Notes: generated from the sequence alone by a model not told the origin. 23,256 bases of DNA from a virus (IMGVR_UViG_3300025316_001100); one strand, 5' to 3'. Positions 1-17,001 are shown, counted from the first letter of the stretch. Translations and numbers: made by a program.

Positions 1-114
1 TCATTAGTGAAAATTAGTGGTGTAAATGTAAGTAAGTTGGAATCGTTGAGCCAAGAAGCCCCTACTCGCTTGCGAGTTAGTTGCGGTACTCCGCAACTAA
101 CCTCTTTAGGGTAG
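1..114 (+). CDS. Partial C-terminus of a probable TnpB-like RNA-guided nuclease
   Basis: Open frame from base 1: SLVKISGVNVSKLESLSQEAPTRLRVSCGTPQLTSLG*. SLSQEAP resembles TnpB C-terminal tails and overlaps the hairpins. No catalytic motif is visible. Confidence 0.45.
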   Translation, partial: SLVKISGVNVSKLESLSQEAPTRLRVSCGTPQLTSLG

Positions 115-125
115 GGGTAATTCAC
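1..125 (+). mobile_element. Probable right end of an IS200/IS605-family (tnpB) element with omegaRNA-like structure
   Basis: Nested hairpins: outer cccctac (59-65)/gtagggg (111-117), ctcg-cttg-cgag (65-76), perfect 11-bp gttagttgcgg-tact-ccgcaactaac (76-101). Ends in TTCAC (121-125), a typical IS200/IS605 right-end motif. Left part is outside the window. Confidence 0.6.
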
Positions 126-225
126 AAGCGTGTTTAGTGGTACATAAACGCACGTTACTAGACCACGCAATTGTCCTGTGCCCCGGAGCCCAAAGCTGTG
201 GGGTAAAACGTAGTGTGAATTTCAT
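106..225 (-). CDS. Array peptide 80 (truncated by IS end)
   Basis: 39 aa MKFTLRFTPQLWAPG..., hand-translated. ATGA overlap. Last codons run into the element end. Confidence 0.65.
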   Translation of the reverse strand: MKFTLRFTPQLWAPGHRTIAWSSNVRLCTTKHACELPLP

Positions 226-386
226 TTCTCACAATTTTCCTTTGATGATTTGAATCCCATGCTTATATTTTGTATGCGTTGGCATTCTGACATAAAGGAC
301 CGATTTGCGACACTGTACTCAAAATAATGGTTTGGTTTCTTGGCCGATCTATCTTCAGAGTGAATTGTTATCAGTATCATCTTCAT
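222..386 (-). CDS. Array peptide 79
   Basis: 54 aa MKMILITIHSEDRS..., hand-translated; ATGA overlap. Confidence 0.75.
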   Translation of the reverse strand: MKMILITIHSEDRSAKKPNHYFEYSVANRSFMSECQRIQNISMGFKSSKENCEK

Positions 387-583
387 GGATTATGACCTCC
401 GAAATGACCAAGGCTTCTTATTTGGTTTTGGTTGAAACCATAGCTTACATACTGAACTCTATCACCCCAGTATTTAAGTCCCATAGCAAAATCATTATAT
501 CTGCTAAGTGCGAGATCGCCCAGCAGTGTGTGTTTTTTCACACAATAAGGTTTCGCACAAAATAGAATTGCTGATCGTTTCAC
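383..583 (-). CDS. Array peptide 78
   Basis: 66 aa (GTG) MKRSAILFCAKPY...; GTGA overlap. Confidence 0.75.
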   Translation of the reverse strand: MKRSAILFCAKPYCVKKHTLLGDLALSRYNDFAMGLKYWGDRVQYVSYGFNQNQIRSLGHFGGHNP

Positions 584-780
584 CACATCCTCCCTCTTCT
601 TACACTGACCGATCCTCCGTTACCTCGTTTAAGCGATACGACTGCGATCCCGCCAAATGACAGGCACCGACCCAAATGATCGAACATCCACTGGGATCGC
701 AGTGGACGCTGGCGTGAATGAATACCCCAACAACGACTGCTACCTGTTGCCATTACCGTTCTACGAATGAATTTTTTCAC
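580..780 (-). CDS. Array peptide 77
   Basis: 66 aa (GTG) MKKFIRRTVMATG...; GTGA overlap. Confidence 0.75.
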   Translation of the reverse strand: MKKFIRRTVMATGSSRCWGIHSRQRPLRSQWMFDHLGRCLSFGGIAVVSLKRGNGGSVSVRRGRMW

Positions 781-968
781 CAGCGATCCCATCTTCCTTT
801 TTTACTTACGCTGTCTGCAAGCCACAATGAACAGGCCCACTTGCCGCCTCTGGTTCCTGTGAATCTTGTGGCAGATCGAGTCTGTTCTTTCCAAATGGAT
901 CGCAATGGGCCGATGCGTGACCACAAACATCCTTTTCTTATTTGCAATGATGGGCGGAATATTTTCAT
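777..968 (-). CDS. Array peptide 76
   Basis: 63 aa MKIFRPSLQIRKG...; ATGA overlap. Confidence 0.8.
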   Translation of the reverse strand: MKIFRPSLQIRKGCLWSRIGPLRSIWKEQTRSATRFTGTRGGKWACSLWLADSVSKKGRWDRW

Positions 969-1138
969 CTTCTGCTTCTGCCCCAATCAAATCTACTTCG
1001 CTGGGAAAACCACCAGTAGCCCCACATGATGCCAGGATGTCTATTGTGCCAACGAAACATTCCGTATTTAGGAATCATGATCCCATGTAATGTCGAAAGG
1101 CTTTGTCGCAAAGATATTGCTTTGAAATGTATTTTCAT
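965..1138 (-). CDS. Array peptide 75
   Basis: 57 aa MKIHFKAISLRQS...DWGRSRR; ATGA overlap; paralog of unit 73. Confidence 0.8.
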   Translation of the reverse strand: MKIHFKAISLRQSLSTLHGIMIPKYGMFRWHNRHPGIMWGYWWFSQRSRFDWGRSRR

Positions 1139-1293
1139 TTGGTGCTTATCCCCCAATCCCCATAATACCATTGAGAGAATGTCCACCGATTAAAACAAGT
1201 GGGAATACTGCATGGTTCCCACCACGATCCCATTTTGAATTGGAATGTTGAACTTATATTTCTCATTAACGGTACGGTTCTAAAACGTTTCAT
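1135..1293 (-). CDS. Array peptide 74
   Basis: 52 aa MKRFRTVPLMRN..., hand-translated; ATGA overlap. Confidence 0.75.
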   Translation of the reverse strand: MKRFRTVPLMRNISSTFQFKMGSWWEPCSIPTCFNRWTFSQWYYGDWGISTK

Positions 1294-1451
1294 CTTTTTT
1301 CACTCCTGCCCCAATCAGCTTCTCCATGTTGCGATGCATTCCAATCTCCCCATCGACTACGACTTCTGGGCACATTCCAATAAGACATTTTTCTTAGCAA
1401 GAGACGAGATGCCCCATGCGATAAAGATACTGCTTTGAAGTTTGTTTTCAT
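1290..1451 (-). CDS. Array peptide 73
   Basis: 53 aa MKTNFKAVSLSHG...DWGRSEKR; ATGA overlap. Confidence 0.8.
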   Translation of the reverse strand: MKTNFKAVSLSHGASRLLLRKMSYWNVPRSRSRWGDWNASQHGEADWGRSEKR

Positions 1452-1648
1452 GCTCGTCTCGATCTTCCTTGTACTTCCCACAGTCTTACATATATTTTAC
1501 TATTAAACAGTCTCAAACCAAAACATTGACAATGCCAGCGATTGCCACTGAAGCCGTCTGCCAATTGAAATGCTAGACCAAATTCGTCATGCCAACTACT
1601 GTAGGTCAAAGTGTTGTGCGTATACGGCAACATACGAAACATTCTCAT
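1448..1648 (-). CDS. Array peptide 72
   Basis: 66 aa MRMFRMLPYTHN...; ATGA overlap. Confidence 0.8.
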   Translation of the reverse strand: MRMFRMLPYTHNTLTYSSWHDEFGLAFQLADGFSGNRWHCQCFGLRLFNSKIYVRLWEVQGRSRRA

Positions 1649-1800
1649 CTGAGACTGAAACCTCTGCGACTTAACGTGCTATGAAAAAAGTTCATATGGA
1701 AGCCAACACACAATGGCAAACTCTTATTGTTATATGAATACGTGCCATGTATTGTAAAAGCACAACTTTTTTTATTATATTGTCTATACAAGAATTTCAT
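1645..1800 (-). CDS. Array peptide 71
   Basis: 51 aa MKFLYRQYNKKSCAF..., hand-translated; ATGA overlaps at both ends. Confidence 0.75.
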   Translation of the reverse strand: MKFLYRQYNKKSCAFTIHGTYSYNNKSLPLCVGFHMNFFHSTLSRRGFSLR

Positions 1801-2048
1801 GCCAACTCTCTCTTGTGATGCGGTTTTTTGCGAAAACTAACATGTGTGAAAGCATCAATTGTAGATGGAGGATCTATTGTCTTGTCTGAAAAAGATGTAT
1901 TGCCAGTGAAACAAAGCGAACGATCCTGCCACCCACCAACCCATTTAGAAAAAAATCCATGATGTTGTGCAAATTCATTGATTAACGAAACCTGTCTGGG
2001 AAACAATCCAGAACATCCAACAAACGGTCTTACTCTTATGATTTTCAT
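1797..2048 (-). CDS. Array peptide 70
   Basis: 83 aa MKIIRVRPFVGCS...; ATGA overlap; paralog of unit 69. Confidence 0.8.
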   Translation of the reverse strand: MKIIRVRPFVGCSGLFPRQVSLINEFAQHHGFFSKWVGGWQDRSLCFTGNTSFSDKTIDPPSTIDAFTHVSFRKKPHHKRELA

Positions 2049-2296
2049 GCGTGGTTTCCATCTTCGTGTGGTCGTCTTCTCCAACTGATGTGAGTCATGC
2101 CATCTATTGATCCATAGATTTCATCTTCATCAGCCCAAGAAGAATACAATTCGCCATCATTGAAGCAAAGGGAATTATCTACGTCTAATTCATCATTTTC
2201 CCATGATGATATTATCATATAACTACGCCTTGACGACACCTGCCGACCATGTGCGCTCGAACAACCAAGAAACGGTCTAGTGAATACGAGTTTCAT
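2045..2296 (-). CDS. Array peptide 69
   Basis: 83 aa MKLVFTRPFLGCS...; ATGA overlap. Confidence 0.8.
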   Translation of the reverse strand: MKLVFTRPFLGCSSAHGRQVSSRRSYMIISSWENDELDVDNSLCFNDGELYSSWADEDEIYGSIDGMTHISWRRRPHEDGNHA

Positions 2297-2508
2297 TCTC
2301 CAAATCCTAATCCGTGTAGTATCTTACTCCAAGGCCAACCTTGAGTGAACCCTCTACTTTCAGACCATCCTGGGTAGGTGTCTTGAACTCTACTTGATCT
2401 CTTGCAATGTGTGTGTGGTCTATTGAACGCAAAAGTATGTTGATATGCCTGCCAATGACTGGCCTGTGTATTAGCTCCGTAGCTTTGCGTATAATGCTTA
2501 AATGTCAT
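2293..2508 (-). CDS. Array peptide 68
   Basis: 71 aa MTFKHYTQSYG...; ATGA overlap. Confidence 0.75.
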   Translation of the reverse strand: MTFKHYTQSYGANTQASHWQAYQHTFAFNRPHTHCKRSSRVQDTYPGWSESRGFTQGWPWSKILHGLGFGE

Positions 2509-2702
2509 ACTAGCCATTGAAATTCTCCTCTTTCAATAAACAAGTCTGTACTTCTACATTCGTAGTAACATATTTTCCCTTCTGTGCTTTGATATGAAAT
2601 GGGAAATGTCAGTCCAGTAAGGTCAAAACAAGAGTAAAATCGCAAAAGGCTAAACCCACCGATGACTCTTTCATTTCTGATGGTTCTAAACGATATTTTC
2701 AC
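2505..2702 (-). CDS. Array peptide 67
   Basis: 65 aa (GTG) MKISFRTIRNERV...; GGAGG RBS upstream; overlaps unit 66 by 17 nt. Confidence 0.75.
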   Translation of the reverse strand: MKISFRTIRNERVIGGFSLLRFYSCFDLTGLTFPISYQSTEGKICYYECRSTDLFIERGEFQWLV

Positions 2703-2883
2703 GTTGCCTCCATCTACCATGTTGTTGTATTTCTGAAAACACCCATGACCTATAACATCTATTGCTCCAAATGGAATATACCCGTCCATGAAGAGTGCGA
2801 AAGAATTGAAATTTCTCCGTGCCACACAATGACATGCCTATGTCTGGCCATTTTAACAATTGCGGTCTGTGGTGAAATTTCAA
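2686..2883 (-). CDS. Array peptide 66
   Basis: 65 aa (TTG) MKFHHRPQLLKW...; TTGA overlap. Confidence 0.75.
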   Translation of the reverse strand: MKFHHRPQLLKWPDIGMSLCGTEKFQFFRTLHGRVYSIWSNRCYRSWVFSEIQQHGRWRQRENIV

Positions 2884-3029
2884 TTTACCCTCTCCCTAAT
2901 TGCCCAAGACCAAATACGCCACCAGGACCAAAATGTTCTTCTTACGTTCTTAGATGACCATTCTATACGAGTTGACCAATAAGTGGATTCTCTTCTGTGG
3001 AAGATATTTGATCTAGTAATGTGCTTCAT
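2880..3029 (-). CDS. Array peptide 65
   Basis: 49 aa MKHITRSNIF...FWSWWRIWSW, hand-translated; ATGA overlap. Confidence 0.75.
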   Translation of the reverse strand: MKHITRSNIFHRRESTYWSTRIEWSSKNVRRTFWSWWRIWSWAIRERVN

Positions 3030-3154
3030 GTAATCCACTTTACATAATACATGTTGTCAGCAAAACAAATGGAAGCTCCGAAGCGTTTGAAACCAATCTG
3101 CATGCCTCGACTAAAACAATTTCCATACCACACGTGATTAAACACAATTTTCAT
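3026..3154 (-). CDS. Array peptide 64
   Basis: 42 aa MKIVFNHVWYG..., hand-translated; ATGA overlap. Confidence 0.75.
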   Translation of the reverse strand: MKIVFNHVWYGNCFSRGMQIGFKRFGASICFADNMYYVKWIT

Positions 3155-3321
3155 TTGTTTTTACTGAAGAATTTATGGTGTCGAAATAAATGCGACCGGC
3201 CTTCTCCTATGTGCCAACGAGAACGAGCAAATGTGCCAGAGACTCCACGCACACTAAACTTGCGCTGAAATCCTGTGGATGAAAGAAGTTTGGCAATTTG
3301 TATTGTAAGAATTATTTTCAT
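3151..3321 (-). CDS. Array peptide 63
   Basis: 56 aa MKIILTIQIAKLL..., hand-translated; ATGA overlap. Confidence 0.75.
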   Translation of the reverse strand: MKIILTIQIAKLLSSTGFQRKFSVRGVSGTFARSRWHIGEGRSHLFRHHKFFSKNK

Positions 3322-3563
3322 CTACGGATGCTTTCCCACTGACTATTCCATGTGACCTTCCAGCTTGAATAGAAGGTTTCTCTTGTACCTAATTCAACCT
3401 TTGATTTCAAGTGTGCGCCGAGAGACATTTCCAAATTCATGTTTATAAAAACAAACCTACCAAATCTATTCACAAAACGCTCAGGCGAACTAGCTTGCGA
3501 ACTGGCATACTGCCGCCTGAACGCTTTGGACAATCCTACAAACGACCTGTCAAAGACTCTCAT
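3318..3563 (-). CDS. Array peptide 62
   Basis: 81 aa MRVFDRSFVGLS...; start 6 nt downstream of a TATAAT. Confidence 0.8.
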   Translation of the reverse strand: MRVFDRSFVGLSKAFRRQYASSQASSPERFVNRFGRFVFINMNLEMSLGAHLKSKVELGTRETFYSSWKVTWNSQWESIRR

Positions 3564-3569
3564 ATTCTT

Positions 3570-3598
3570 ATTATACCACGATTGGGAGGGGACGTAAA
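3570..3598 (-). promoter_or_regulatory. Internal sigma70-like promoter, probably leaderless
   Basis: TTTACG (3598-3593) - 17 nt - TATAAT (3575-3570) with extended -10 TG. ATG follows after 6 nt, with no RBS. Confidence 0.65.
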
Positions 3599-3599
3599 C

Positions 3600-3815
3600 C
3601 TATAAGATTCTTCTTGCATTGCTATTGAGCCTGCTATAACCCATGCCTCTCTGCCGAGAAAAACATGTGGAATAGCAATGTAGGTCACTATGCCCTCTAA
3701 ACCATCTGGAAGCCCCTTGGTAGTGTTCGTGGATGCCGCATGAACTGCAAGTCCAATAATGCGGCCCATTAAGAGATCGGCCGTGGAAATGAATATAGAA
3801 GCGTTGAAGCATCAT
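3600..3815 (-). CDS. Array peptide 61
   Basis: 71 aa MMLQRFYIHFHG...; start abuts previous TAA. Confidence 0.75.
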   Translation of the reverse strand: MMLQRFYIHFHGRSLNGPHYWTCSSCGIHEHYQGASRWFRGHSDLHCYSTCFSRQRGMGYSRLNSNARRIL

Positions 3816-4001
3816 TTAATATGGTTCCTTATGTCTTCTAACACTTCTTGTGCTTTCCGTTCTTCGATCTTTATAAGAACATCCTCGGCGCTGCTCAAAA
3901 TCCACACTCATGCCACGTAAATTGTGTTTTGAACACAGGTGATGACCCGACCAATAACCTGCTTTACTTGTGGCATAATACCACGTGTGAATTATTTTCA
4001 T
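3816..4001 (-). CDS. Array peptide 60
   Basis: 61 aa MKIIHTWYYATS...; ATGA overlap. Confidence 0.8.
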   Translation of the reverse strand: MKIIHTWYYATSKAGYWSGHHLCSKHNLRGMSVDFEQRRGCSYKDRRTESTRSVRRHKEPY

Positions 4002-4222
4002 TTTCGACTCATACCACTTAAACCATCATTGTGCAAACCGCCTGCATATGAATTACATGATCTGGTAGACCATGATTCACTACGACTTGCGGCCGATCCA
4101 CTTCTAGGACCATTATAGAACGAACGCTGCCGACCATCGGTGGTAATGCATCCAAATCGCTTTTGACCTATTATCGGGAAAATCGCCAAGTTAATAGCAT
4201 GTGTCATAGAGAAAATTTTCAT
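3998..4222 (-). CDS. Array peptide 59
   Basis: 74 aa MKIFSMTHAINL...; TAATG overlap. Confidence 0.8.
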   Translation of the reverse strand: MKIFSMTHAINLAIFPIIGQKRFGCITTDGRQRSFYNGPRSGSAASRSESWSTRSCNSYAGGLHNDGLSGMSRK

Positions 4223-4413
4223 TACTTTCTACTCATCATCAATGTGTGTGTCTTACCAGAACAATAGTATCTTGTACTGAAACATCCTGATTTCCAATGA
4301 AGCCGTTCTCGGTGAGCCGAGAACGGCCCTTCATTACTAAGCATTCCACAAGAGTAAAAACGCCATGTCGAAGTGGAAATGCGACTACGTATTGGCCTTA
4401 TTAAAATTCTCAT
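4222..4413 (-). CDS. Array peptide 58
   Basis: 63 aa MRILIRPIRSRIS...; ATGA overlap. Confidence 0.8.
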   Translation of the reverse strand: MRILIRPIRSRISTSTWRFYSCGMLSNEGPFSAHRERLHWKSGCFSTRYYCSGKTHTLMMSRK

Positions 4414-4619
4414 TTTCTGCTCGCCCATATTCTTTCGTTCACAACGCCATGCATAAGTGATCGAGAGAATGCATATGATCCCGACCGTGTTTGCAATGGA
4501 GGAAAGCTTTTCGCTGATCTGATATGAAACCCCGAAATAGATACGCCCTGTTCAAACCTGCCACGACCACCAGCCGATCCAATGTATAAACCCGGCCATA
4601 ACTTTGCAAAAATTCTCAT
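4410..4619 (-). CDS. Array peptide 57
   Basis: 69 aa MRIFAKLWPG...; start abuts previous TAG. Confidence 0.8.
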   Translation of the reverse strand: MRIFAKLWPGLYIGSAGGRGRFEQGVSISGFHIRSAKSFPPLQTRSGSYAFSRSLMHGVVNERIWASRK

Positions 4620-4841
4620 CTATTTCCGACTGGATACCCAATGCGTGTTTTTGGCAGAAGAAAACAATCGCAATGAAGCGGGCGCACTTCTAAAATAATG
4701 ATTGTCGGCCCACTTGCTCATGGGAGCAGTTGATGGGGCCATAGTTGACCAAAATCTTCTTAGTCCAGTGGATGCCGAATATCCAGGGTCTACAAATGGT
4801 AATCTTTGAAATGGACTCATTTGTGACTTGCCACCTTTCAT
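4620..4841 (-). CDS. Array peptide 56
   Basis: 73 aa MKGGKSQMSPFQR...; ATGA overlap. Confidence 0.75.
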   Translation of the reverse strand: MKGGKSQMSPFQRLPFVDPGYSASTGLRRFWSTMAPSTAPMSKWADNHYFRSAPASLRLFSSAKNTHWVSSRK

Positions 4842-5017
4842 CTGTTCGTACCTACTGCATAAAAATTAATTGCCGTGCTGTGTGTTGTAATGGCTCTGAA
4901 ACCAAACATCATTGGCAGGCGAGTCCAAAGGCAATAAGCTATTTCAGGCCGACCAATGGACGATACATAGCTTCTGCCCCACACTGATGCCGGGTGTGTT
5001 CTTAGTATTCTTTTCAT
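4838..5017 (-). CDS. Array peptide 55
   Basis: 59 aa MKRILRTHPASVWG...; start 4 nt after previous stop. Confidence 0.75.
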   Translation of the reverse strand: MKRILRTHPASVWGRSYVSSIGRPEIAYCLWTRLPMMFGFRAITTHSTAINFYAVGTNR

Positions 5018-5021
5018 CTTC

Positions 5022-5327
5022 TTACCCTTCGCCTTGGAATCGCATTCCATGTATCCACCTTCTTGGAATGGTATTCCATGTATCCACTATTTCTCTAACA
5101 TAACGACCCTTGCCCTCACCAGAAGATTGCCACGGTGGAGGAACTTTATACACAAAGTCTATTTGAAGAATGGAATATTTTCTACGCAGATTAAAACATG
5201 CACCTTGAACAATATTGAATTTCCATCTGGATCGTAGTCTACGAGAGGTATGTACAGATTGGTACACCCCTCGATGTGATTGCGAAATTGACGGATCGGT
5301 TCGGTTTGTACGATTAAAAAACATCAT
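5022..5327 (-). CDS. Array peptide 54 (extended by a 29-bp duplication)
   Basis: 101 aa MMFFNRTNRTDPS..., the longest unit; ATGA overlap. Confidence 0.7.
   Translation of the reverse strand: MMFFNRTNRTDPSISQSHRGVYQSVHTSRRLRSRWKFNIVQGACFNLRRKYSILQIDFVYKVPPPWQSSGEGKGRYVREIVDTWNTIPRRWIHGMRFQGEG
5033..5087. repeat. 29-bp-period tandem duplication
   Basis: cttggaatcgcattccatgtatccac (5033-5058) and cttggaatggtattccatgtatccac (5062-5087). Confidence 0.9.
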
Positions 5328-6844: not shown

Positions 6845-6850
6845 GCTTAC

Positions 6851-6879
6851 ATTCTACCACAGAAGTGATGGTTAGTAAA
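6851..6879 (-). promoter_or_regulatory. Internal sigma70-like promoter, probably leaderless
   Basis: TTTACT (6879-6874) - 17 nt - TAGAAT (6856-6851) with extended -10 TG. ATG follows after 6 nt. Same layout as 3570-3598. Confidence 0.6.
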
Positions 6880-8790: not shown

Positions 8791-8799
8791 ATTAAACTA

Positions 8800-9545: not shown

Positions 9546-9748
9546 TCTGATGTATCCCAAATCGAACAATAGCTATCTGTTGACCAAGCGTTAATCCACG
9601 CTTCCATAGTTCTCCATTGAGAATAAGAAGTCATGGGGAACTGATTTACCCATGATGTAACCCCTACTCGCCATTTAGATCTGCATGTGCGTGACATTGG
9701 ATTTGACCTAGCCCCAGGCCAAGCATGTTGTATCAATAACACTCTCAT
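9542..9748 (-). CDS. Array peptide 32
   Basis: 68 aa MRVLLIQHAWPG...; ATGA overlap. Confidence 0.8.
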   Translation of the reverse strand: MRVLLIQHAWPGARSNPMSRTCRSKWRVGVTSWVNQFPMTSYSQWRTMEAWINAWSTDSYCSIWDTSE

Positions 9749-9951
9749 TTCTGTTCCGATCTTGGCATGCGATAAGCTGAAACGCTCCATTTGCGATGGC
9801 TATTGCTTATTGAGAAATCACTAATGCTACCGAATCTTTCAAAATCATTATGCTTGTGACATCGCCCATACACTGCATTCCATTGGGAATAAAAGTATTC
9901 TGTATTGCCAATCGCATGAACAGCCCAACCGCTTCTTGTAATTAATTTCAT
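9745..9951 (-). CDS. Array peptide 31
   Basis: 68 aa MKLITRSGWAVHAIG...; diverged paralog of units 29/30. Confidence 0.8.
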   Translation of the reverse strand: MKLITRSGWAVHAIGNTEYFYSQWNAVYGRCHKHNDFERFGSISDFSISNSHRKWSVSAYRMPRSEQK

Positions 9952-9963
9952 TGGTTCCGTTTC

Positions 9964-10155
9964 TTATTCATGCACTGATCTTGTGTCGCCATGTGCTGCA
10001 TAGCTCCATGCTCGACTACGTTGCCAACGTGAAAAATCGGTATGTGCGCCTTGACTCTTTTGCGACCATTCATAAATTAGTCCCCAATGGGAATAGATCT
10101 TTTCCATCGTTCCCACGGCTGAGGTGGCCCAACCACATCTGGTTATTAGCTTCAT
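9964..10155 (-). CDS. Array peptide 30
   Basis: 63 aa MKLITRCGWATSAVG...; 41/63 identical to unit 29. Confidence 0.85.
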   Translation of the reverse strand: MKLITRCGWATSAVGTMEKIYSHWGLIYEWSQKSQGAHTDFSRWQRSRAWSYAAHGDTRSVHE

Positions 10156-10167
10156 CGGTTCCGTCTC

Positions 10168-10359
10168 TTATTTATGTACTGATCTTGTGTCACGATGGAC
10201 TGTATGGCCCCATGCTCTACCACTCCGCCAACATGAAAAATCGCTATATATGCGATGGCTCTTTTGTGACCATTCGTAAATCGGTTCCCAATTGGAATAG
10301 GTCTTTTCTGCCATTCCCACGGTTGAGGTGGCCCAACCACATCTGGTTATTAGCTTCAT
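10168..10359 (-). CDS. Array peptide 29
   Basis: 63 aa MKLITRCGWATSTVG...; ATGA overlap. Confidence 0.85.
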   Translation of the reverse strand: MKLITRCGWATSTVGMAEKTYSNWEPIYEWSQKSHRIYSDFSCWRSGRAWGHTVHRDTRSVHK

Positions 10360-10920: not shown

Positions 10921-11096
10921 CGTCTTCTCCACCGGCTGTGATTCAATGATAACATTCTTTCCACATACCAACCAGTCGTACTCCACCATCCAAGTCCCCA
11001 ATACCCTTGCGTTTCATAGGACTTTATAGAGGATTGCATGTGTGTCCACACGCTTTTTGCAACACCAATCTGTAGACTCTTTGCAAAATATTTCAT
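10917..11096 (-). CDS. Array peptide 25
   Basis: 59 aa MKYFAKSLQIG..., hand-translated; ATGA overlap. Confidence 0.75.
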   Translation of the reverse strand: MKYFAKSLQIGVAKSVWTHMQSSIKSYETQGYWGLGWWSTTGWYVERMLSLNHSRWRRR

Positions 11097-11323
11097 GGTC
11101 GGAAATGCCAGTCAACTGCGTTCGTATGACCCTCTCTATACTTTCGACTGCTTACTCTATCGAATTGATTCTGAGAACCACCTGCACCAAATTCAAAACA
11201 CAATCGCTGCCAACGAAACGTCATTCCCAAATGAAGACTAAAGTCTCCTGATATGTTCGGAAAACCCGTCGCTCCCTGTGGCGTCCAACGATCTATAATC
11301 CAAGTTCTATGAAATATTTTCAT
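11093..11323 (-). CDS. Array peptide 24
   Basis: 76 aa MKIFHRTWIIDRW...; TAATG overlap. Confidence 0.8.
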   Translation of the reverse strand: MKIFHRTWIIDRWTPQGATGFPNISGDFSLHLGMTFRWQRLCFEFGAGGSQNQFDRVSSRKYREGHTNAVDWHFRP

Positions 11324-11478
11324 TATTTAGAACAAAAATGCCATCGCCTAGAAAAGCATGCAGAAAACATACGATTGGTACTCACGCTCCAAAAATTAGC
11401 TATTGGAAAATTCGTTGCTCGGACTTGGTATCCTCCATGCGCTCGACACAGACGATGATGGGCAAATACTCGTTTCAT
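11323..11478 (-). CDS. Array peptide 23
   Basis: 51 aa MKRVFAHHRLCR..., hand-translated; ATGA overlap. Confidence 0.75.
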   Translation of the reverse strand: MKRVFAHHRLCRAHGGYQVRATNFPIANFWSVSTNRMFSACFSRRWHFCSK

Positions 11479-11612
11479 CGTGTTTCCGACCATTGATTGA
11501 ACAAAGAAAAACAGTAGCTACAAAACATATCTGTGCTACAAATGTAGCTCATAATGTCATAAGAGCATTGACTGCGAATATCAATATTCGGTCGCCTATT
11601 AAAGAATCTCAT
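11475..11612 (-). CDS. Array peptide 22
   Basis: 45 aa MRFFNRRPNIDIRS..., hand-translated; start 1 nt after previous stop. Confidence 0.7.
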   Translation of the reverse strand: MRFFNRRPNIDIRSQCSYDIMSYICSTDMFCSYCFSLFNQWSETR

Positions 11613-11613
11613 T

Positions 11614-11766
11614 TCATGGTCCCCACCCAAGCCAACTGGATACACACCATCTTTCGGTCCAACAAACAGAGCACATCCTTCTTGATTCTAATACGCTCCA
11701 CTCCCGGCCACGATGTATTATGCTACACCTTTCCTGATTGCCCCATGCTGTAAATGGCATTCTCAT
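11614..11766 (-). CDS. Array peptide 21
   Basis: 50 aa MRMPFTAWGNQ..., hand-translated; ATGA overlap. Confidence 0.75.
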   Translation of the reverse strand: MRMPFTAWGNQERCSIIHRGREWSVLESRRMCSVCWTERWCVSSWLGWGP

Positions 11767-11933
11767 GTATCATTCTCCTGATCTATCCATAACGAACAGG
11801 CTTGTGTTCGGTATTTGGTTGACCAATACCAACCGCCTAATCTCGACCACACGCTAAGTCCATGACTTAACTTACTTCTGCCTCTGGCAGAACCAGTATT
11901 TGGCATCCAGTATGCACACCAAATCATTTTCAT
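11763..11933 (-). CDS. Array peptide 20
   Basis: 56 aa MKMIWCAYWMP..., hand-translated; ATGA overlap. Confidence 0.75.
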   Translation of the reverse strand: MKMIWCAYWMPNTGSARGRSKLSHGLSVWSRLGGWYWSTKYRTQACSLWIDQENDT

Positions 11934-12094
11934 TTGTTCCTATGTCTCCAACAAGTTGATGTAGATGGTTTATCTTCATTTTGCCGTGACCACCCCCAAT
12001 TAATTGTCCATGCTGAATACCATCGTCTCAAACGGCTGCGTTCTTGGCCGTATGCAGCAAAAGGATGGGCAAATGATCGCAAAAGTATTTTCAC
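11930..12094 (-). CDS. Array peptide 19
   Basis: 54 aa (GTG) MKILLRSFAHP..., hand-translated; GTGA overlap. Confidence 0.75.
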   Translation of the reverse strand: MKILLRSFAHPFAAYGQERSRLRRWYSAWTINWGWSRQNEDKPSTSTCWRHRNK

Positions 12095-12282
12095 CAGCCT
12101 TTACTCCAATACCATTCTTGCTCTCGATTGATTGGATAGTATTTCCAAGAAACATGACTAACCCACATTGACCACACCATGCCCTCACTAAAAGGCGAAC
12201 ACCACGACCAACCCAATTTATGTTCTGATGGCAGATACCATCGACTGACATGCCCTTTAGTTGAGAACATTATGAATTTCAT
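12091..12282 (-). CDS. Array peptide 18 (first of block 2)
   Basis: 63 aa MKFIMFSTKG..., 8 Trp; RBS GAGGTGG. Confidence 0.8.
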   Translation of the reverse strand: MKFIMFSTKGHVSRWYLPSEHKLGWSWCSPFSEGMVWSMWVSHVSWKYYPINREQEWYWSKGW

Positions 12283-12363
12283 CGCCACCTCGAAAATCGC
12301 CCGTTATGAGACCAAGCTAAAACATCTTGGAAGCCCATGCGAGAACGGCTTGAAAAAGCGTGC

Positions 12364-12398
12364 AAAAACACTCGCCCTGCCATTGGCAGGGCGAGTGT
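12364..12398 (-). terminator. Intrinsic terminator after the DUF6745-like gene
   Basis: Inverted repeat acactcgccctgcca/tggcagggcgagtgt (12368-12398), followed on the minus strand by a TTTTTG tract. Confidence 0.8.
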
Positions 12399-12453
12399 CC
12401 AAGCATCGCTTAGATGATAAGCCAGGACGTAATGAATCCGCCAACGCATGTGA

Positions 12454-13044
12454 TTAGGTTTCTACGTTAGGATGATAATCGGTAGCATCCCTGCGGAATG
12501 TCCAGGCGATAGCCTCGGCACAGGTCTTCATATTGGGCGGCACTGACAAGAAGTATTTCTTAACCGTACCATCCGGTTCTGGCGTTGAATTGAACACCAT
12601 AACGACTGTAATGGGTTCTTCCAGACCCTCACTCTTAAACTGCAACAGTTTGGCACCGGTCTTTTTATCGTGATGGATGGTTTTGAATTCACCTTCCTCC
12701 AACATCCGATCATAACCATAGATTTCCAAACCGGCGTAACGAACTTCGGTGTTCGGATGGGTTAGGATTTCTTTGATAGCCAATTGTTCAGGATGAGTGG
12801 CATATTTGCTGGGGATCAAAATGCCTCGGAAATAATGAATAACAGTACCCCAAATGTCACAGTATTCACCGTGGCGACGACCCTCAATATAGTGGGCGAT
12901 CACGGTAGGAGAGATATACGCTGGGCCTGTTTCACAATGCAACTTGTCATTGACATCCCGCTTCATTTCCAGAGGACCAAACGGTTTGTTTCGTCGGATT
13001 TCCTCAAGATTGTAAAGCCATTGCGCACGCTTGTTCAAAGCCAT
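12454..13044 (-). CDS. DUF6745-like protein
   Basis: 196 aa. Motifs LHCETGPA, EILTHPNTEVRYAGLEIYGY and NSTPEPDG..YFLSVPP...T...A.AWTF....Y.P..ET recognised from DUF6745-type proteins. AAAGGA RBS. Confidence 0.85.
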   Translation of the reverse strand: MALNKRAQWLYNLEEIRRNKPFGPLEMKRDVNDKLHCETGPAYISPTVIAHYIEGRRHGEYCDIWGTVIHYFRGILIPSKYATHPEQLAIKEILTHPNTEVRYAGLEIYGYDRMLEEGEFKTIHHDKKTGAKLLQFKSEGLEEPITVVMVFNSTPEPDGTVKKYFLSVPPNMKTCAEAIAWTFRRDATDYHPNVET

Positions 13045-13076
13045 GTTAAAACGATCCTTTCTGGTTTTTCAAGAAA

Positions 13077-13253
13077 TTAGTAGCAACTTATGCTCGACTT
13101 ATAAGCTGACCAGAGGCTATGATTATTAAAAAAGCCACCGCAGCCGCTTGCACACATGTTGTTAGTGAAACACTCACACCAATAGAATGTATAATCGGCC
13201 GAACCTTGAATGGATGATTTAGCACCGAATGATGCTGTTGTAAATATTTTCAT
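13077..13253 (-). CDS. Array peptide 17
   Basis: 58 aa MKIFTTASFG...; ATGA overlap. Confidence 0.8.
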   Translation of the reverse strand: MKIFTTASFGAKSSIQGSADYTFYWCECFTNNMCASGCGGFFNNHSLWSAYKSSISCY

Positions 13254-13456
13254 TTTCCCACACAGACCGCTCTGCCCTCGCCCCATGATCGGGACCAATC
13301 GGCACCCAACATGTTACCCCTACCGGATCGCCTATTCATGCGCAACGTCCTAACCGACTGATGAATAGGAAACCGACTACAAGAATAACGGGATGTAAAC
13401 CTATCGTTTCTTTGATGAAGGCCATATTCTGAACTAAATTGTTGTAAATATTTCAT
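13250..13456 (-). CDS. Array peptide 16
   Basis: 68 aa MKYLQQFSSEYG...; ATGA overlap. Confidence 0.8.
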   Translation of the reverse strand: MKYLQQFSSEYGLHQRNDRFTSRYSCSRFPIHQSVRTLRMNRRSGRGNMLGADWSRSWGEGRAVCVGK

Positions 13457-13647
13457 TTTCCCCTGATGGCCTTACAAGGCCGATTATCACTGAATGCTCT
13501 GGACCAATTTTCGGCTGCAAACGCTTGACTTTTGCCAAGCATGTCCCACACACTAAAAGCCCGAAAGGTGTGGATTAGAGAATATCTATGATTTTGGTCC
13601 ACCCACATACTTAAACCATACGTCGTTTGTATTAAAATGTTTTTCAT
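13453..13647 (-). CDS. Array peptide 15
   Basis: 64 aa MKNILIQTTYG...; ATGA overlap. Confidence 0.8.
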   Translation of the reverse strand: MKNILIQTTYGLSMWVDQNHRYSLIHTFRAFSVWDMLGKSQAFAAENWSRAFSDNRPCKAIRGK

Positions 13648-13847
13648 CGGAAATACGCCTGCCCCTTCGACCAACAACACGACCAAGTATAATGATGATC
13701 GTTGCTATGAAAATAAAGTCCACTGCCTGCATTTGGGCCTCTTCTATGTATGCCAGTACGACTAAACACTTTCCAAACAGAGTAACAATATTTCGTATTA
13801 CTGGATGATCCCGCTGGTAATGCGGCTACTCTTATTCCTGTTTTCAT
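13644..13847 (-). CDS. Array peptide 14
   Basis: 67 aa MKTGIRVAALPAG...; ATGA overlap. Confidence 0.8.
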   Translation of the reverse strand: MKTGIRVAALPAGSSSNTKYCYSVWKVFSRTGIHRRGPNAGSGLYFHSNDHHYTWSCCWSKGQAYFR

Positions 13848-14020
13848 AGATGCATTCCTCTAAAACAAGATGAACAAGTGCCCATCCTACTTAAAGAAGC
13901 AAAACTCGTATTCTTTACATATATTGAATGCTGCACCCATACCGATTCTCTTCGTATGGAGACAAATTGCCGTCTGCCTTTCCTTATTTGATACGATCCT
14001 GATTTTTTGAAAATGTTCAT
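13844..14020 (-). CDS. Array peptide 13
   Basis: 58 aa MNIFKKSGSYQIR..., hand-translated; 24-nt gap upstream. Confidence 0.75.
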   Translation of the reverse strand: MNIFKKSGSYQIRKGRRQFVSIRRESVWVQHSIYVKNTSFASLSRMGTCSSCFRGMHL

Positions 14021-14044
14021 TATGCGTTTATAAAACCCATTGCC

Positions 14045-14245
14045 TTACGTGTGTCTCTCGTCTGTAAACCCCACTGATAAGGCCCATCGCCACAAACTCA
14101 CTTGTAGGAATCCATTTGTACAACAGCCACGACCATTCTTATTGACTGAGTTTCGTAAAGGCACCCAACCACTGTCGGTGAATTCAAACATGTGAGACCA
14201 ATAAGAGCGATCAATTTTATTACAATGCCACAACAACATTCTCAT
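14045..14245 (-). CDS. Array peptide 12
   Basis: 66 aa MRMLLWHCNKID...; ATGA overlap. Confidence 0.8.
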   Translation of the reverse strand: MRMLLWHCNKIDRSYWSHMFEFTDSGWVPLRNSVNKNGRGCCTNGFLQVSLWRWALSVGFTDERHT

Positions 14246-14379
14246 TTGCCTAATGTCCAACTTACAGATCGATACACATTCCAAGAAAACGACCAACAAC
14301 AACCAAGTAGTCCCGGAACGCCCCTTACATGTGTCCCTCGTTTTCTTTCCACTTCTAATCTATTGAATAACATTCTCAT
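14242..14379 (-). CDS. Array peptide 11
   Basis: 45 aa MRMLFNRLEVER..., hand-translated; ATGA overlap. Confidence 0.75.
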   Translation of the reverse strand: MRMLFNRLEVERKRGTHVRGVPGLLGCCWSFSWNVYRSVSWTLGK

Positions 14380-14582
14380 TCTTTTGTCCAACACTTAGAA
14401 CATTGAAAAGTCAATTGATCGTAAGGACGAAACCCCATATCTCTTCTACTGCTCCACGCTCCTGGCCATATCCACATGGTAGCATAGGAAGCTGTACGCC
14501 CACAAGAATTTCTTATCCAGCGTTTGGTTACACTGATATGTAACAAATCACTGAATATTTGTGTGCGAAGTATAAACTTCAC
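14376..14582 (-). CDS. Array peptide 10
   Basis: 68 aa MKFILRTQIFSD...; ATGA overlap. Confidence 0.8.
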   Translation of the reverse strand: MKFILRTQIFSDLLHISVTKRWIRNSCGRTASYATMWIWPGAWSSRRDMGFRPYDQLTFQCSKCWTKE

Positions 14583-14794
14583 CGTGCCCTCATTTTGTCT
14601 GGATCATGCTTGAACGACCAACCTCTTAGGAACTGCCATGCCGACCAATGCCCGCCCTCCCAAGAACCCCAAGCAGAAGTATCCCAAAAGAAAGTAAGTC
14701 GAATTACGCTTCGTTGTTTTGCTTTTCGCAACTCGCTATATTTGAAATAACTTAACTGGCTTGCGGCCGATGCGGTAGATAATATAATTTTCAT
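14579..14794 (-). CDS. Array peptide 9
   Basis: 71 aa MKIILSTASAAS...; ATGA overlap. Confidence 0.8.
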   Translation of the reverse strand: MKIILSTASAASQLSYFKYSELRKAKQRSVIRLTFFWDTSAWGSWEGGHWSAWQFLRGWSFKHDPDKMRAR

Positions 14795-14994
14795 AATTTT
14801 CTAAACGACTCCATTTCCATTGCTGCAAAACACGAAGACCAAGCAACTGCATATCTACATGCTGCGCTCCACGTTTGACTCATCCTGGTAGAACACCTCA
14901 TATCGGTAGCCATTGAGTGTGATTGAGAATTGTTGTCCTCGAATGTTATACAATCATTACCGTGCCCGCACGCTATTGATTTGATAATCTTCAT
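14791..14994 (-). CDS. Array peptide 8
   Basis: 67 aa MKIIKSIACGHG...; 3-nt gap. Confidence 0.8.
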   Translation of the reverse strand: MKIIKSIACGHGNDCITFEDNNSQSHSMATDMRCSTRMSQTWSAACRYAVAWSSCFAAMEMESFRKL

Positions 14995-14997
14995 GAA

Positions 14998-15219
14998 TTA
15001 ATTGTGTCCTAGTGGAAAAGAACCGCCATATCGTTGTAAGTTTCTTGATCCCATTTCTGACCACGCATGATGGTACAACGTAGCCCAAATCCGCATCCCA
15101 TCAATGTTATCATTGAATCCACAAAAGTTTTCATAAGAACCCATTCCATATGCCAGATTCAAACCAAAACAACGACAAATCGGATCATGCCCAGTTGCTA
15201 TTTGTCTAATGAGTTTCAT
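14998..15219 (-). CDS. Array peptide 7
   Basis: 73 aa MKLIRQIATGHD...; ATGA overlap. Confidence 0.8.
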   Translation of the reverse strand: MKLIRQIATGHDPICRCFGLNLAYGMGSYENFCGFNDNIDGMRIWATLYHHAWSEMGSRNLQRYGGSFPLGHN

Positions 15220-15383
15220 CTAATTGGTTCCTTGTGTGATCTCGGCAAAATACGCCATCGGCTCCAAAATTGACCAAGTATCAAATCACAAGAGGAATAA
15301 CCAGTCCATGATCCAGACCACGTTCTCCACGCTGATCTGTTCATGTAGTCATAACCCGTAATAGCTGTACGAATGATTTTCAT
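15216..15383 (-). CDS. Array peptide 6
   Basis: 55 aa MKIIRTAITGYD...; ATGA overlap. Confidence 0.8.
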   Translation of the reverse strand: MKIIRTAITGYDYMNRSAWRTWSGSWTGYSSCDLILGQFWSRWRILPRSHKEPIR

Positions 15384-15544
15384 TGGCCCACTTTCTTTAA
15401 CCACCAACTACAGCGATTATGGTCACCCCAACGGCTCCAAAACAATTTATGCACACTCATTGAATGTGTATGCAAATTACCAAGTCGTTGCGGATCTTTG
15501 CAAGACTTCTTAACAAAATGCAATACACGAAACATGTTTTTCAC
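15380..15544 (-). CDS. Array peptide 5
   Basis: 54 aa (GTG) MKNMFRVLHFVK..., hand-translated; GTGA overlap. Confidence 0.75.
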   Translation of the reverse strand: MKNMFRVLHFVKKSCKDPQRLGNLHTHSMSVHKLFWSRWGDHNRCSWWLKKVGQ

Positions 15545-15705
15545 GATCTTTTACTGCTTCTGTAACTAATCCATCTGCTAAAGAAGTGACCGAAATTTGA
15601 TCGCCAGATACAAAATGAACGCCAAATATTACGTCTGTGATTAGCCGACCAAGCAGTCCGATTTTTCCACTTGCGATTGGTGATAATAGACAAAATGATT
15701 TTCAT
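15541..15705 (-). CDS. Array peptide 4
   Basis: 54 aa MKIILSIITNRKW...; GGAG RBS. Confidence 0.8.
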   Translation of the reverse strand: MKIILSIITNRKWKNRTAWSANHRRNIWRSFCIWRSNFGHFFSRWISYRSSKRS

Positions 15706-15829
15706 GACACTGACTCCAAAATTTCCAAATCCACGGAAGCATGTTATTGACCGACATGGTAGACATAATCTAACAAGATCGTTTGACAACCATATCTCTT
15801 CTTCGTAATGCAAATAATGCGATTTTCAT
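15706..15829 (-). pseudogene. Array unit 3, disrupted
   Basis: ATGA-coupled start MKIALFALRRRDMVVKRSC, then TAG at 15772-15770. The same frame continues IMSTMSVNNMLPWIWKFWSQC. Confidence 0.55.
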
Positions 15830-15981
15830 GTTTCGATCCAACAAGAGCGACTAAATGGCCATTCCCACTGACATTGTGTGTAAAAATTTCCGCTTATTGA
15901 ATAACCAAATGCACGCTCAAACGTATGTTTTTTCTGCCATCGCCCAAATCGAACCGTATATGATCTACGAATAACTTTCAT
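15826..15981 (-). CDS. Array peptide 2
   Basis: 51 aa MKVIRRSYTVRFG..., hand-translated; ATGA overlap. Confidence 0.75.
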   Translation of the reverse strand: MKVIRRSYTVRFGRWQKKHTFERAFGYSISGNFYTQCQWEWPFSRSCWIET

Positions 15982-16160
15982 TTTGGTTTTGGCCCATGTT
16001 TGTTACTTTCGTATTCGTCACCTATCCATCGGCTCCAATACTTCCAGCTACCCAACCAACTCATTACATGAAAACCTTCGCCCCAGCCAGAGTGTTTTAA
16101 TTGCCCCGCTTTCGGTCTACGCATTCGGGCATGCATTGTGTTACGAAATATGGTTTTCAT
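15978..16160 (-). CDS. Array peptide 1
   Basis: 60 aa MKTIFRNTMHAR...; GGAG RBS directly after the terminator. Confidence 0.8.
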   Translation of the reverse strand: MKTIFRNTMHARMRRPKAGQLKHSGWGEGFHVMSWLGSWKYWSRWIGDEYESNKHGPKPK

Positions 16161-16173: not shown

Positions 16174-16208
16174 AAAAAACCCGATGTGGGCATGCCCACA
16201 TCGGGTTT
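16174..16208 (-). terminator. Intrinsic terminator after the Sm-like gene
   Basis: Perfect 32-nt palindrome aaacccgatgtgggca/tgcccacatcgggttt (16177-16208); on the minus strand the stem ends in a TTTTTTG tract. Confidence 0.8.
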
Positions 16209-16949: not shown

Positions 16950-17001
16950 AATCGACTCCTTGGTAAAACTGGTGATTTTATTAACTTCACTTGTCTTCAG
17001 T

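Follow-up and report, generated by a model that had tools for sequence, protein, structure and literature searches.

The locus analysed here, a window of 23,256 nucleotides from an uncultured phage (IMGVR_UViG_3300025316_001100), raises the question of whether a long run of small open reading frames (ORFs) packed end to end on its minus strand represents genuine genes and, if so, what such a set of proteins would do. The reading favoured here, with a probability of roughly 0.7, is that the ORFs form one polycistronic array, about 80 genuine genes for basic microproteins rich in Trp, Ser and Arg that belong to a family linked to an Sm-like gene; that they would bind nucleic acid together with the Sm-like protein is its most speculative part.

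Organization of the array

Optimal ORF tiling of the minus strand covers 22,740 of the 23,256 nt. Between 106 and 16199 the tiling consists of 81 ORFs, namely 80 small units of 39-101 codons (median 64.5) and a 196-residue DUF6745 gene, the sole interruption of the array (Table 1). Exact 4-nt NTGA overlaps are found at 63 of the 80 junctions (56 ATGA, 6 GTGA and 1 TTGA), a further three are of the TAATG type, and only eight contain gaps of more than 4 nt. Most units begin on the stop codon of the unit before them (ATGA), which allows ribosomes to pass down the transcript from one to the next by termination and re-initiation. These figures agree with an earlier note on this DNA, which had described 80 minus-strand ORFs of 39-101 amino acids with NTGA overlaps at 62 of 78 junctions. 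That note had also proposed simulating random sequence, and in 200 second-order Markov sequences of the array region all three measures fall far below those observed: ORF coverage of 106-16199 is 100%, compared with a simulated mean of 69.5% (maximum 78.6%), the NTGA junctions compare with a mean of 5.1 (maximum 14), and the 40 starts in which ATG is followed by K, R or N and two hydrophobic residues compare with a mean of 0.43 (maximum 4). The plus strand across the same region resembles the simulations, with 63% coverage and 4 junctions. SD-like motifs lie 5' of 28 of the 80 unit starts, an enrichment over the 8.3 seen at random positions.

Two starts can be placed more precisely. The first unit most likely begins at the ATG at 16160, 3' of a terminator-like hairpin, and in the unit at 15541-15813 an internal MKIIL at 15705 is most likely the true start. 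Two promoter-like sites sit in the few intergenic gaps of the array. TRF detects a 204-bp duplication at 9923-10366 as the only repeat in the array, and no microsatellite. Recoding (TGA as W, TAG as Q or TAA as Q) was rejected, as no single stop reassignment produces long ORFs, and hidden frames are excluded, since TAA, TAG and TGA all abound in the five remaining frames (4-7% of codons). Searches for tRNA genes, tmRNA genes and Rfam families found none. Exact unit sequences are present on a contig of 373,808 nt (genome of about 374 kb).

Table 1. Features of the window, with coordinates counted from its first nucleotide
Feature	Position	Strand	Basis or remark
Small-gene array, 80 units	106..16160	-	Tiling, junction counts, simulation, purifying selection in the ORF frame only
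Intergenic gap with extended -10 promoter-like site (TTTACG, 17-nt spacer, TGGTATAAT)	3564..3599	-	
Intergenic gap with extended -10 promoter-like site (TTTACT, 17-nt spacer, TGGTAGAAT)	6845..6879	-	
Three-member local paralog set, including the recent 204-bp duplication	9745..10359	-	Single 63-aa copy in siblings
DUF6745 gene, 196 aa, embedded in the array	12454..13044	-	Pfam PF20530, E 1.8e-31
Terminator-like hairpin (14-bp stem, 8 GC pairs, T-run), between Sm-like gene and first unit	16177..16208	-	
Sm/LSm-fold gene, 99 aa, acidic, directly 5' of the array	16230..16529	-	AF2 pLDDT 90.3, Foldseek
Cupin-like gene, first of the conserved trio	16626..17033	-	PHROG 27831, E 4e-8

Selection and turnover of units

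Sibling strains with 92-97% nucleotide identity provide orthologs for 59 of the 80 units, some close relatives (ENA contigs) being compared through gene maps only. Against L004, the 24 clean units have a dN/dS of 0.21 in the ORF frame and of 1.41 and 0.95 in the +1 and +2 frames (binomial p 2e-23), and against L164/L167, 26 other units give 0.20 in the ORF frame versus 1.28 and 1.29 in the off-frames, with 55, 42 and 136 differences at the three codon positions. Pooled over the 59 units, there are 372 synonymous and 377 non-synonymous differences (pN/pS 0.26). About 30 units are individually significant for purifying selection, none is significantly above 1, and selection acts over the whole length of these 40-100 aa units. 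The units are thereby confirmed as real protein-coding genes under purifying selection, and its restriction to the ORF frame, together with the enrichment of SD-like motifs, upholds their earlier description as real, same-strand, tightly coupled small-protein genes.

The codon-position pattern also largely refutes the notion that translation alone matters, with open, coupled frames holding ribosomes (avoiding Rho termination or soaking up ribosomes) or serving as a functionless nursery of de novo ORFs. This would suit one sibling, in which a 1-nt indel fuses two units and leaves the chain intact, but openness alone would not deplete non-synonymous changes four-fold, and with a dN/dS of 0.2 and so many individually significant units the notion is scarcely credible.

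Comparison of array content across related genomes, a check that the earlier note had suggested, reveals at least six gains, losses or replacements of units between the siblings. In a relative whose DUF6745 protein is 68% identical, no unit orthologs are detectable; together, these observations indicate that turnover is fast. Orthologous units are 55%-100% identical in amino acid sequence, with significant rate heterogeneity, and the recent duplicate pair within the local paralog set has a dN/dS of 0.62. The previous characterization of the array as rapidly diversifying thus stands for unit turnover and for this range of identities, but not for the existing units, which at a mean dN/dS of 0.2-0.26, with no unit significantly above 1, are conserved rather than hypermutated.

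Turnover of this kind could reflect a host-interaction repertoire, in which the units are separate binders, inhibitors or decoys, each directed against a defence or receptor of the host, and diversify under an arms race. The differing unit content of siblings, the heterogeneous rates, the relaxed duplicate pair, the loss of detectable orthology in the more distant relative and the adjoining genes, which are small and mostly uncharacterised, are in keeping with it. The low mean dN/dS is not, and, with the evidence from profile searches and related arrays given below, makes this repertoire unlikely.

Properties of the encoded proteins

The typical unit product is about 65 aa long and begins M-K-hydrophobic-hydrophobic-x-R/K, with conservation confined to residues 1-6 (leader logo: position 2, K52/R14/N6; position 3, I/M/L/F; position 4, I/F/L; position 6, R26/K10). 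An alignment of all 80 units has a mean column identity of 8%, and only about five local sets of paralogs can be aligned. The units contain 5.3% W, 12.4% S and 10.5% R and are depleted in E, D, V, A and L. WS or SW is present in 54 of the 80 units, S-x-W (z = 9.2) and W-S (z = 4.9) are enriched, as is the S-x-W-S motif, and the serines of WS are drawn from both TCN and AGY codons, indicating that the motif is a feature of the protein. The account given before from the sequence alone, of an M-[KRN]-hydrophobic-hydrophobic start, a composition rich in S, R and W and poor in L, A, E and D, WS or SW in two thirds of the units, and bodies that align only among local paralogs, is borne out in each respect.

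In overall composition the units lie nearer to random-codon expectation than the neighbouring genes do, 52 of the 80 are predicted to be disordered (charge-hydropathy rule), and the single unit submitted to structure prediction has no confident fold. Each of these properties would also suit frames kept open for translation only; however, W is about three-fold above random expectation, and S-x-W-S is a feature at the protein level. Profile searches of all 80 units against Pfam and PHROG returned zero matches, anti-defence families included, which speaks against the host-interaction repertoire. For one unit, the best ESM Atlas score was an uninformative 0.77, and an exhaustive phmmer search returned two long low-complexity proteins and zero small-protein relatives; megablast, blastn and tblastn searches of public phage records gave no match.

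The units are strongly basic, with a mean net charge of +6.2 and a pI of 10.1, compared with a pI of 5.5 for the neighbouring genes. Small, strongly basic proteins with a common N-terminal tag, in a phage with a very large genome, could be polycations packaged in the virion, where they would neutralise the charge of about 374 kb of DNA or be co-injected like the internal proteins of T4, the leader acting as a targeting signal. In T4-type internal proteins, the N-terminal targeting peptide ends in a prohead-protease site, L/I-x-E. The leader logo contains no such site and no conserved Glu after the leader, and Pfam and PHROG identify no head or protease genes nearby, so packaging in the virion is highly improbable.

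The adjoining Sm-like, cupin-like and DUF6745 genes

The Sm-like protein has the fold of an RNA chaperone: its top 50 PDB matches in Foldseek are all Sm/LSm proteins, with TM-scores (target length) of 0.6-0.8; its Pfam matches are sub-threshold only, several of them to Sm-type families. The stop codon of its gene lies 70 nt from the start of the first unit, and the terminator-like hairpin between them indicates that the two are not simply co-translated. A complex prediction of the Sm-like protein with one unit, made without controls, gave a score of 0.00 and a unit pLDDT of about 30, values that speak for binding no more than against it.

The Sm-like gene forms a trio with the cupin-like and DUF6745 genes. 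Loci in viral contigs were retrieved only with the DUF6745 alignment, single-protein searches giving no match, and among the 163 loci the cupin-like and DUF6745 genes co-occur in 107 and all three genes in 54. The trio is also widespread in phages without the array. An invariant GHxH...HxEH motif (a His/Glu metal motif) is seen in the cupin-like alignment. The DUF6745 protein has an ordinary composition, 33 homologs and an AF2 pLDDT of 91; comparison of its fold with the PDB by Foldseek and a wide VIA-align search yielded nothing clear (best Z 4.6). PDB profile searches with the Sm-like, DUF6745 and cupin-like profiles gave no significant match, and a literature search on DUF6745, on Sm-like proteins with Ser/Trp repeats and on Trp-rich phage microproteins found nothing relevant. 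The other neighbours in the window are small and mostly uncharacterised by Pfam and PHROG.

Given these neighbours, the units might be RiPP-type precursors, whose leader would direct the cupin-like or DUF6745 protein to modify Ser/Trp/Cys-rich cores and so generate many modified peptides. The constant N-terminus, variable core and many tandem copies have this form, the enriched S-x-W-S could be a modification site, the metal motif of the cupin-like protein belongs to one of several conserved, uncharacterised adjoining genes, and radical SAM genes occur near the trio in one relative. However, the roughly six conserved leader residues are far fewer than in known RiPP leaders, Pfam searches of the larger genes in the window found no maturase (LanM, rSAM or YcaO), protease or exporter, selection is not confined to part of the unit, and the trio is common where there is no array. 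Modification of this type is therefore very unlikely.

Related arrays in other phages

Other uncultured phages have arrays built alike, with the leader, a basic body rich in W, S and R and NTGA coupling. They lie directly 3' of an Sm-like gene in L045 (about 30 units), L047 (about 22), L048, L098/L099, L031/L091 and L052, and in L030 the array follows Sm-DUF6745. Those arrays of relatives for which selection was estimated are likewise under purifying selection (dN/dS 0.56 and 0.32). S-to-W enrichment falls at lag 2 in the window units and at odd lags in L045, L047 and L052; only L030 has the pattern of the window, with the S-x-W signature in common (z = 14.1). A leader PSSM built from other lineages distinguishes the window units from control N-termini (AUC 0.78, p 1e-17), but with HMMs built from units of other lineages the window units score no higher than reversed or shuffled decoys, and BLASTP across lineages gives chance-level matches only, none significant. 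Family membership thus depends on context, architecture and composition rather than on demonstrable sequence homology. A composition-only filter for finding units was dropped because of many false positives in high-GC loci.

Some of the related arrays are near-pure Ser-Trp/Arg/Gly repeats. These Ser-X repeat microproteins resemble the window units in their small size, strong basic charge, short basic-hydrophobic leader and body rich in Ser and Trp/Arg/Gly, and in both cases the genes lie directly after an acidic Sm-fold gene, are often tandem and NTGA-coupled, and vary between strains. The Ser-X microproteins, however, are near-perfect period-2 repeats encoded by hexamer microsatellites and usually present in 1-3 copies, whereas the window contains 80 complex, individually distinct units with S-x-W (lag 2) and only 5% Trp, from which the strict period-2 repeat is absent. 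Near-pure repeats are unlikely to be specific binders, and the constant link to the Sm-like gene points to a single process common to all units, not to 80 separate targets, both of which count further against the host-interaction repertoire. Among the members found of this phage gene family, which is undescribed and begins just after an Sm-like gene, the 80-unit array is the largest expansion.

A possible role in nucleic acid binding

In the coupled, Sm-linked microprotein array, a few of the intergenic gaps carry predicted sigma-70-like promoters. The array probably arose through successive tandem duplications, after which the copies diverged past recognition, with gain and loss of units apparently still ongoing between strains, and it probably represents a higher-complexity branch of the Ser-X (X = W/R/G) repeat microproteins beside Sm-like genes. 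Most speculatively, the microproteins would be polycations with little structure whose ligand is nucleic acid, probably RNA, and in the infected cell the acidic Sm-like protein would be their partner or chaperone. This role is a best guess, made with low confidence. Neither basic charge nor the absence of a confident fold is specific to it. A more specific proposal, that a viral Sm-like ring uses the roughly 80 units as exchangeable partners ("tails in trans"), which would lend this one RNA chaperone many RNA or protein specificities or form an RNA-protein condensate at takeover, is quite unlikely.

About 4% of a phage genome of about 374 kb is thus devoted to 80 distinct microprotein genes, mostly missed by annotation pipelines. 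That their composition looks non-coding while selection on them is purifying calls for caution in gene calling in huge phages. The locus also brings to light a widespread, unpublished phage module, in which cupin-like, Sm-like and DUF6745 genes are followed by Trp/Ser/Arg-rich microproteins with a common leader, in copy numbers from a few units up to 80. Ranging from pure Ser-X repeats to complex units that are individually conserved, such arrays could offer a tractable view of how low-complexity sequence gives rise to new proteins. If the microproteins do act with the Sm-like protein on RNA, they would represent takeover machinery of a type new to phages; if they are a repertoire of partners for an Sm ring, they would constitute an as yet undescribed type of viral RNP system and a natural example of dipeptide-repeat microsatellites becoming complex, selected proteins.

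Comparison with known systems

Termination-reinitiation at overlapping stop and start codons (ATGA, TAATG) is established. The array shares these overlaps (63 NTGA and 3 TAATG among 80 junctions) with translationally coupled operons and differs from them in scale, with about 80 consecutive cistrons, and in combining ATGA with an N-terminal motif common to the whole family. In RiPP precursor arrays, among them that of the prochlorosin ProcA peptides, numerous small ORFs likewise follow one another in tandem, constant at the N-terminus and variable beyond it. The window array is alike in these respects, but its leader comprises only about six residues, no known maturase accompanies it, and its units are basic and long.

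An LSm-like fold has been described for the T4 early proteins GoF, MotB.1 and Frd.2 (Kim et al., 2025, PMC12152347). By fold, the Sm-like protein of the window resembles these, which are likewise small and phage-encoded and are suspected to act on RNA. Nothing like the microprotein array beside the Sm-like gene here is described for T4. The earlier statement that no described phage system has an array of this size requires qualification, since phages G and 121Q are reported to contain tandem arrays of more than 30 genes (Hua et al., PMC5646251) and the relatives found here carry 20-30 similar units. The G and 121Q arrays are also large same-strand tandem expansions in genomes of more than 200 kb and are likewise read as tandem duplication. 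Their copies are described as very similar, whereas few paralog sets can be aligned in the window, where the genes are much smaller and more than twice as numerous.

Organization of the array

No ORF longer than 200 codons occurs anywhere in the window, and an alternative genetic code was rejected, as long frames remain absent after reassignment of TGA, TAG or TAA. Instead, the optimal tiling of minus-strand ORFs spans 22,740 of the 23,256 nt. Within the array, the small ORFs (units) have a median length of 64.5 codons (range 39-101) and are mostly joined by NTGA junctions, 4-nt overlaps of the stop of one unit with the start of the next. These overlaps are found at 63 of the 80 junctions (56 ATGA, 6 GTGA and 1 TTGA) and TAATG at three, with only eight gaps exceeding 4 nt. 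This bears out the earlier note's description of a minus-strand tiling by about 80 overlapping ORFs, and the comparison with random sequence that it proposed is equally clear. Compared with 200 simulations of the region under a second-order Markov model, coverage is 100% (best simulated tiling 69.5% on average, maximum 78.6%), NTGA junctions number 63 (average 5.1, maximum 14), and starts of the form M-[KRN]-hydrophobic-hydrophobic number 40 (average 0.43, maximum 4), all far above the simulated maxima. The plus strand of the region resembles the simulations.

Translational coupling through stop/start overlaps is well established. Shine-Dalgarno-like tetramers precede the starts of 28 of the 80 units, compared with 8.3 ± 2.8 at random positions. 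Together, the overlaps and these motifs indicate, at the level of sequence, a same-strand chain organized for coupled translation along a long transcript. Since the array reaches the window's starting edge, its far end may be cut; L164, a sibling strain of the window phage, has a longer version of the last unit.

Features of the array and of the genes adjoining it
Feature	Position	Strand	Basis or remark
Array with embedded gene	106-16199	minus	80 small units tiled around an ordinary gene (DUF6745)
Predicted extended -10 promoter, TGGTATAAT	3570-3578		Sequence prediction, rated good; in one of the few array gaps
Predicted extended -10 promoter, TGGTAGAAT	6851-6859		Sequence prediction, rated good; in one of the few array gaps
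DUF6745 gene	12454-13044	minus	Embedded in array; Pfam E 1.8e-31
Strong intrinsic-terminator-like hairpin	16177-16208	minus	14-bp stem; between Sm-like gene and first unit
99-aa acidic protein, predicted Sm fold	16230-16529		AF2 and Foldseek
Cupin-like gene	16626-17033		PHROG 27831; invariant GHxH...HxEH

Evidence for translation of the units

The composition of the array resembles that of translated non-coding DNA, making the reality of the ORFs the main doubt. Sibling strains allow this to be addressed, as L004 can be aligned to window positions 8334-14638, and L164 and L167 to 126-7100, at 92-97% nucleotide identity. Across the 24 units with a clean alignment to L004, the annotated frame has a dN/dS of 0.21 and the two shifted frames have values of 1.41 and 0.95 (binomial p 2e-23). 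A further 26 units compared with L164 give 0.20 versus 1.28 and 1.29, with 55, 42 and 136 differences at codon positions 1, 2 and 3. Across the 59 units with an ortholog there are 372 synonymous and 377 non-synonymous differences (pN/pS 0.26), and about 30 of these units are individually significant. Stop codons make up 4-7% of codons in every other frame of both strands, thus no other reading explains the substitution pattern. Additionally, the WS dipeptide is encoded with both TCN and AGY serine codons, marking it as a protein-level feature. The conclusion from these comparisons is that the units undergo translation and that purifying selection acts on their protein sequences. The possibility that the ORFs are merely translated, to which their composition might lend itself, is contradicted by the dN/dS values and is the sole rival explanation that is largely excluded.

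Properties of the unit proteins

The noted richness in W, S and R (5.3%, 12.4% and 10.5%, respectively) and poverty in E, D, A and L hold for the units, with V also depleted. G is frequent at codon position 2 of the units (0.32); in the neighbouring ordinary genes it is position 1 that is G-rich. The proteins are strongly basic, with a mean net charge of +6.2 (at least +3 in 71 of 80) and a median pI of 10.1, compared with 5.5 for neighbouring genes. They share a short N-terminal leader, M-K-(I/M/L/F)-(I/F/L)-x-(R/K), and are enriched in S-x-W (z = 9.2; 82 occurrences in 55 units, often as [Y/R/F]-S-x-W), in W-S (z = 4.9) and in W-to-W at lag 4 (z = 2.7). The charge-hydropathy rule classes 52 of the 80 as disordered, a weak hint of disorder. 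None of the 80 has a match in Pfam or PHROGs, and when one well-conserved unit served as the query in an exhaustive phmmer search of 1.84 billion representatives, no related small protein was recovered. Arginine codon usage also differs from that of ordinary genes, with AGA at 40% versus 17% and CGT at 16% versus 31%, a contrast that fits a separate mutational origin of the array.

Genes adjoining the array

In the direction of transcription, the array is preceded by the cupin-like gene, the gene for the 99-aa acidic protein and the hairpin. An alignment of the cupin-like protein (A5) has the invariant motifs R-Q-G-D, G-E-x-T-G-H-x-H and H-x-E-H, suggesting a metal site. The AF2 model of the 99-aa protein (pLDDT 90.3, from a 34-sequence alignment) matches Sm/LSm structures in all of its top 50 Foldseek matches to the PDB, with TM-scores by target length of 0.6-0.8; the protein as modelled has an Sm fold. 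The hairpin could be an attenuator that governs entry or read-through into the array. DUF6745 is also modelled confidently (pLDDT 91), and neither Foldseek nor VIA-align found a clear PDB match (best Z 4.6), with residues 23-78 showing a weak likeness to the beta-hairpin repeats of radial-spoke proteins; the model may represent an undescribed fold. The family is very widespread in phage contigs, with 492 tblastn-confirmed loci in one metagenome scan. Farther out, the orthologs of 17286-17711 and 18281-18736 on a sibling contig bear the Pfam labels VVA0879 (PF28055) and T2SSF_N (PF28597) in that contig's ENA gene map, and a Pfam scan of these two window proteins gave nothing above threshold.

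Related arrays in other phages

A DUF6745 alignment search of metagenome and viral contigs gave 160 loci, which with three further contigs make 163. The trio of cupin-like, Sm-like and DUF6745 genes is complete in 54 of these, and 53 more contain the cupin-like and DUF6745 genes; these two are thus linked in 107 loci, including many that lack the Sm-like gene or an array. Downstream of the trio, some loci carry arrays built like that of the window: about 30 units each in L045 and L030, about 22 in L047 (every one starting MIRK and ATGA-joined), and others in L048, L098/L099, L031/L091, L025, L010 and L052/L053. In a relative with a DUF6745 of 68% identity, about 30 small genes surround this gene, and the relative's short contigs L001 and L002 encode ATGA-joined, W-rich units with MK leaders. 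The 80 units of the window form the biggest array among the loci seen. In a more distant relative (L003 and a 16,180-nt ENA contig with P0011), the trio adjoins several radical SAM, glycosyltransferase and methyltransferase genes.

Two types of array can be distinguished. Ser and Trp alternate in L045, L047, L048, L098, L025, L031, L010 and L052, where S-to-W is over-represented at lags 1 and 3 and under-represented at lags 2 and 4. The extreme is L052, in which MKLIRRAN is followed by SWS/RSWS repeats and the body is (S-W/R/G)n. Unlike these, the window and L030 favour S-x-W, at lag 2 (z = 9.3 and 14.1, respectively). The two types have in common a W-to-W signal at lag 4, a basic charge, the length of the units and the kind of leader. 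A leader PSSM built from the alternating arrays distinguishes the window units from 2,281 N-termini used as controls (AUC 0.78, p 1e-17). Full-length HMMs of other lineages fail to tell window units apart from reversed or shuffled decoys, and BLASTP against those lineages gives only chance-level matches; relatedness thus draws its support from shared position, architecture, composition and leader rather than from any demonstrable body homology. The most plausible reading of the window array is that of a very large branch, of higher complexity, within a family of Ser-X (X = W, R or G) repeat microproteins that adjoin Sm-like genes. That its units may descend from hexamer-encoded repeats is suggested by the gradation among the arrays and by the richness in G at codon position 2.

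Turnover and selection

The earlier note's proposal of rapid diversification holds for the content of the array, which shifts between siblings, but not for existing units, which are conserved; none of the 59 with an ortholog has dN/dS significantly above 1. Within one strain pair, orthologous units range from 55% to 100% amino acid identity (heterogeneity p 4e-6), and a few (10356-10541, 12279-12449 and 9542-9748) are compatible with neutrality. The units at 4410-4619, 10538-10723, 2686-2883 and 12279-12449 are fast-evolving. A recent 204-bp duplicate pair has a dN/dS of 0.62 and older paralog pairs about 0.3, while arrays of other lineages are likewise under purifying selection (0.56 for L047/L048, 0.32 for L031/L091).

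Comparing related genomes, as the earlier note advised, reveals gains and losses alongside the 59 shared units. L004 has an additional unit ahead of DUF6745 and lacks the window's duplicate; L164 has four units without a window counterpart, and other window units are missing from it. In L004 (260-589, against window 14045-14379), a 1-nt indel fuses two units into a 109-aa ORF by bringing the second half of one into the reading frame of its successor. Each ATGA junction shifts the frame by -1, so that reading after a +1 indel passes directly into the following unit. An opposite-strand TnpB gene (Pfam Cas12f1-like_TNB; L164:1-1145, L167:9-1136) lies exactly at the junction of units 6880-7098 and 7095-7298 (window ~7100), where the window array is uninterrupted, and looks like an IS200/IS605-type insertion or replacement. 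No unit orthology is recognizable at 68% DUF6745 identity. The array evolves by fast turnover of its content, while the units already present are conserved.

Possible function and comparison with known systems

The array probably grew by tandem duplication followed by divergence. Its products, as polycationic, Trp-rich and mostly unstructured microproteins, might bind nucleic acid and might cooperate with, or stay soluble through, the acidic Sm-like protein. This functional proposal, though favoured over the alternatives, is speculative and of low probability. Less probably, the same basic proteins might be packaged polycations, RiPP precursors, or a repertoire of binders or decoys for host interaction, as the earlier note had suggested.

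No paper on DUF6745, the trio-array module or these microproteins was found in the literature. Early proteins with an LSm-like fold are reported for T4 (PMC12152347), and phages G and 121Q are reported to contain arrays in which more than 30 similar genes stand in tandem (PMC5646251). In light of such expansions and of known coupling, the array is a tandem multigene expansion in a huge phage, involving an unpublished family.
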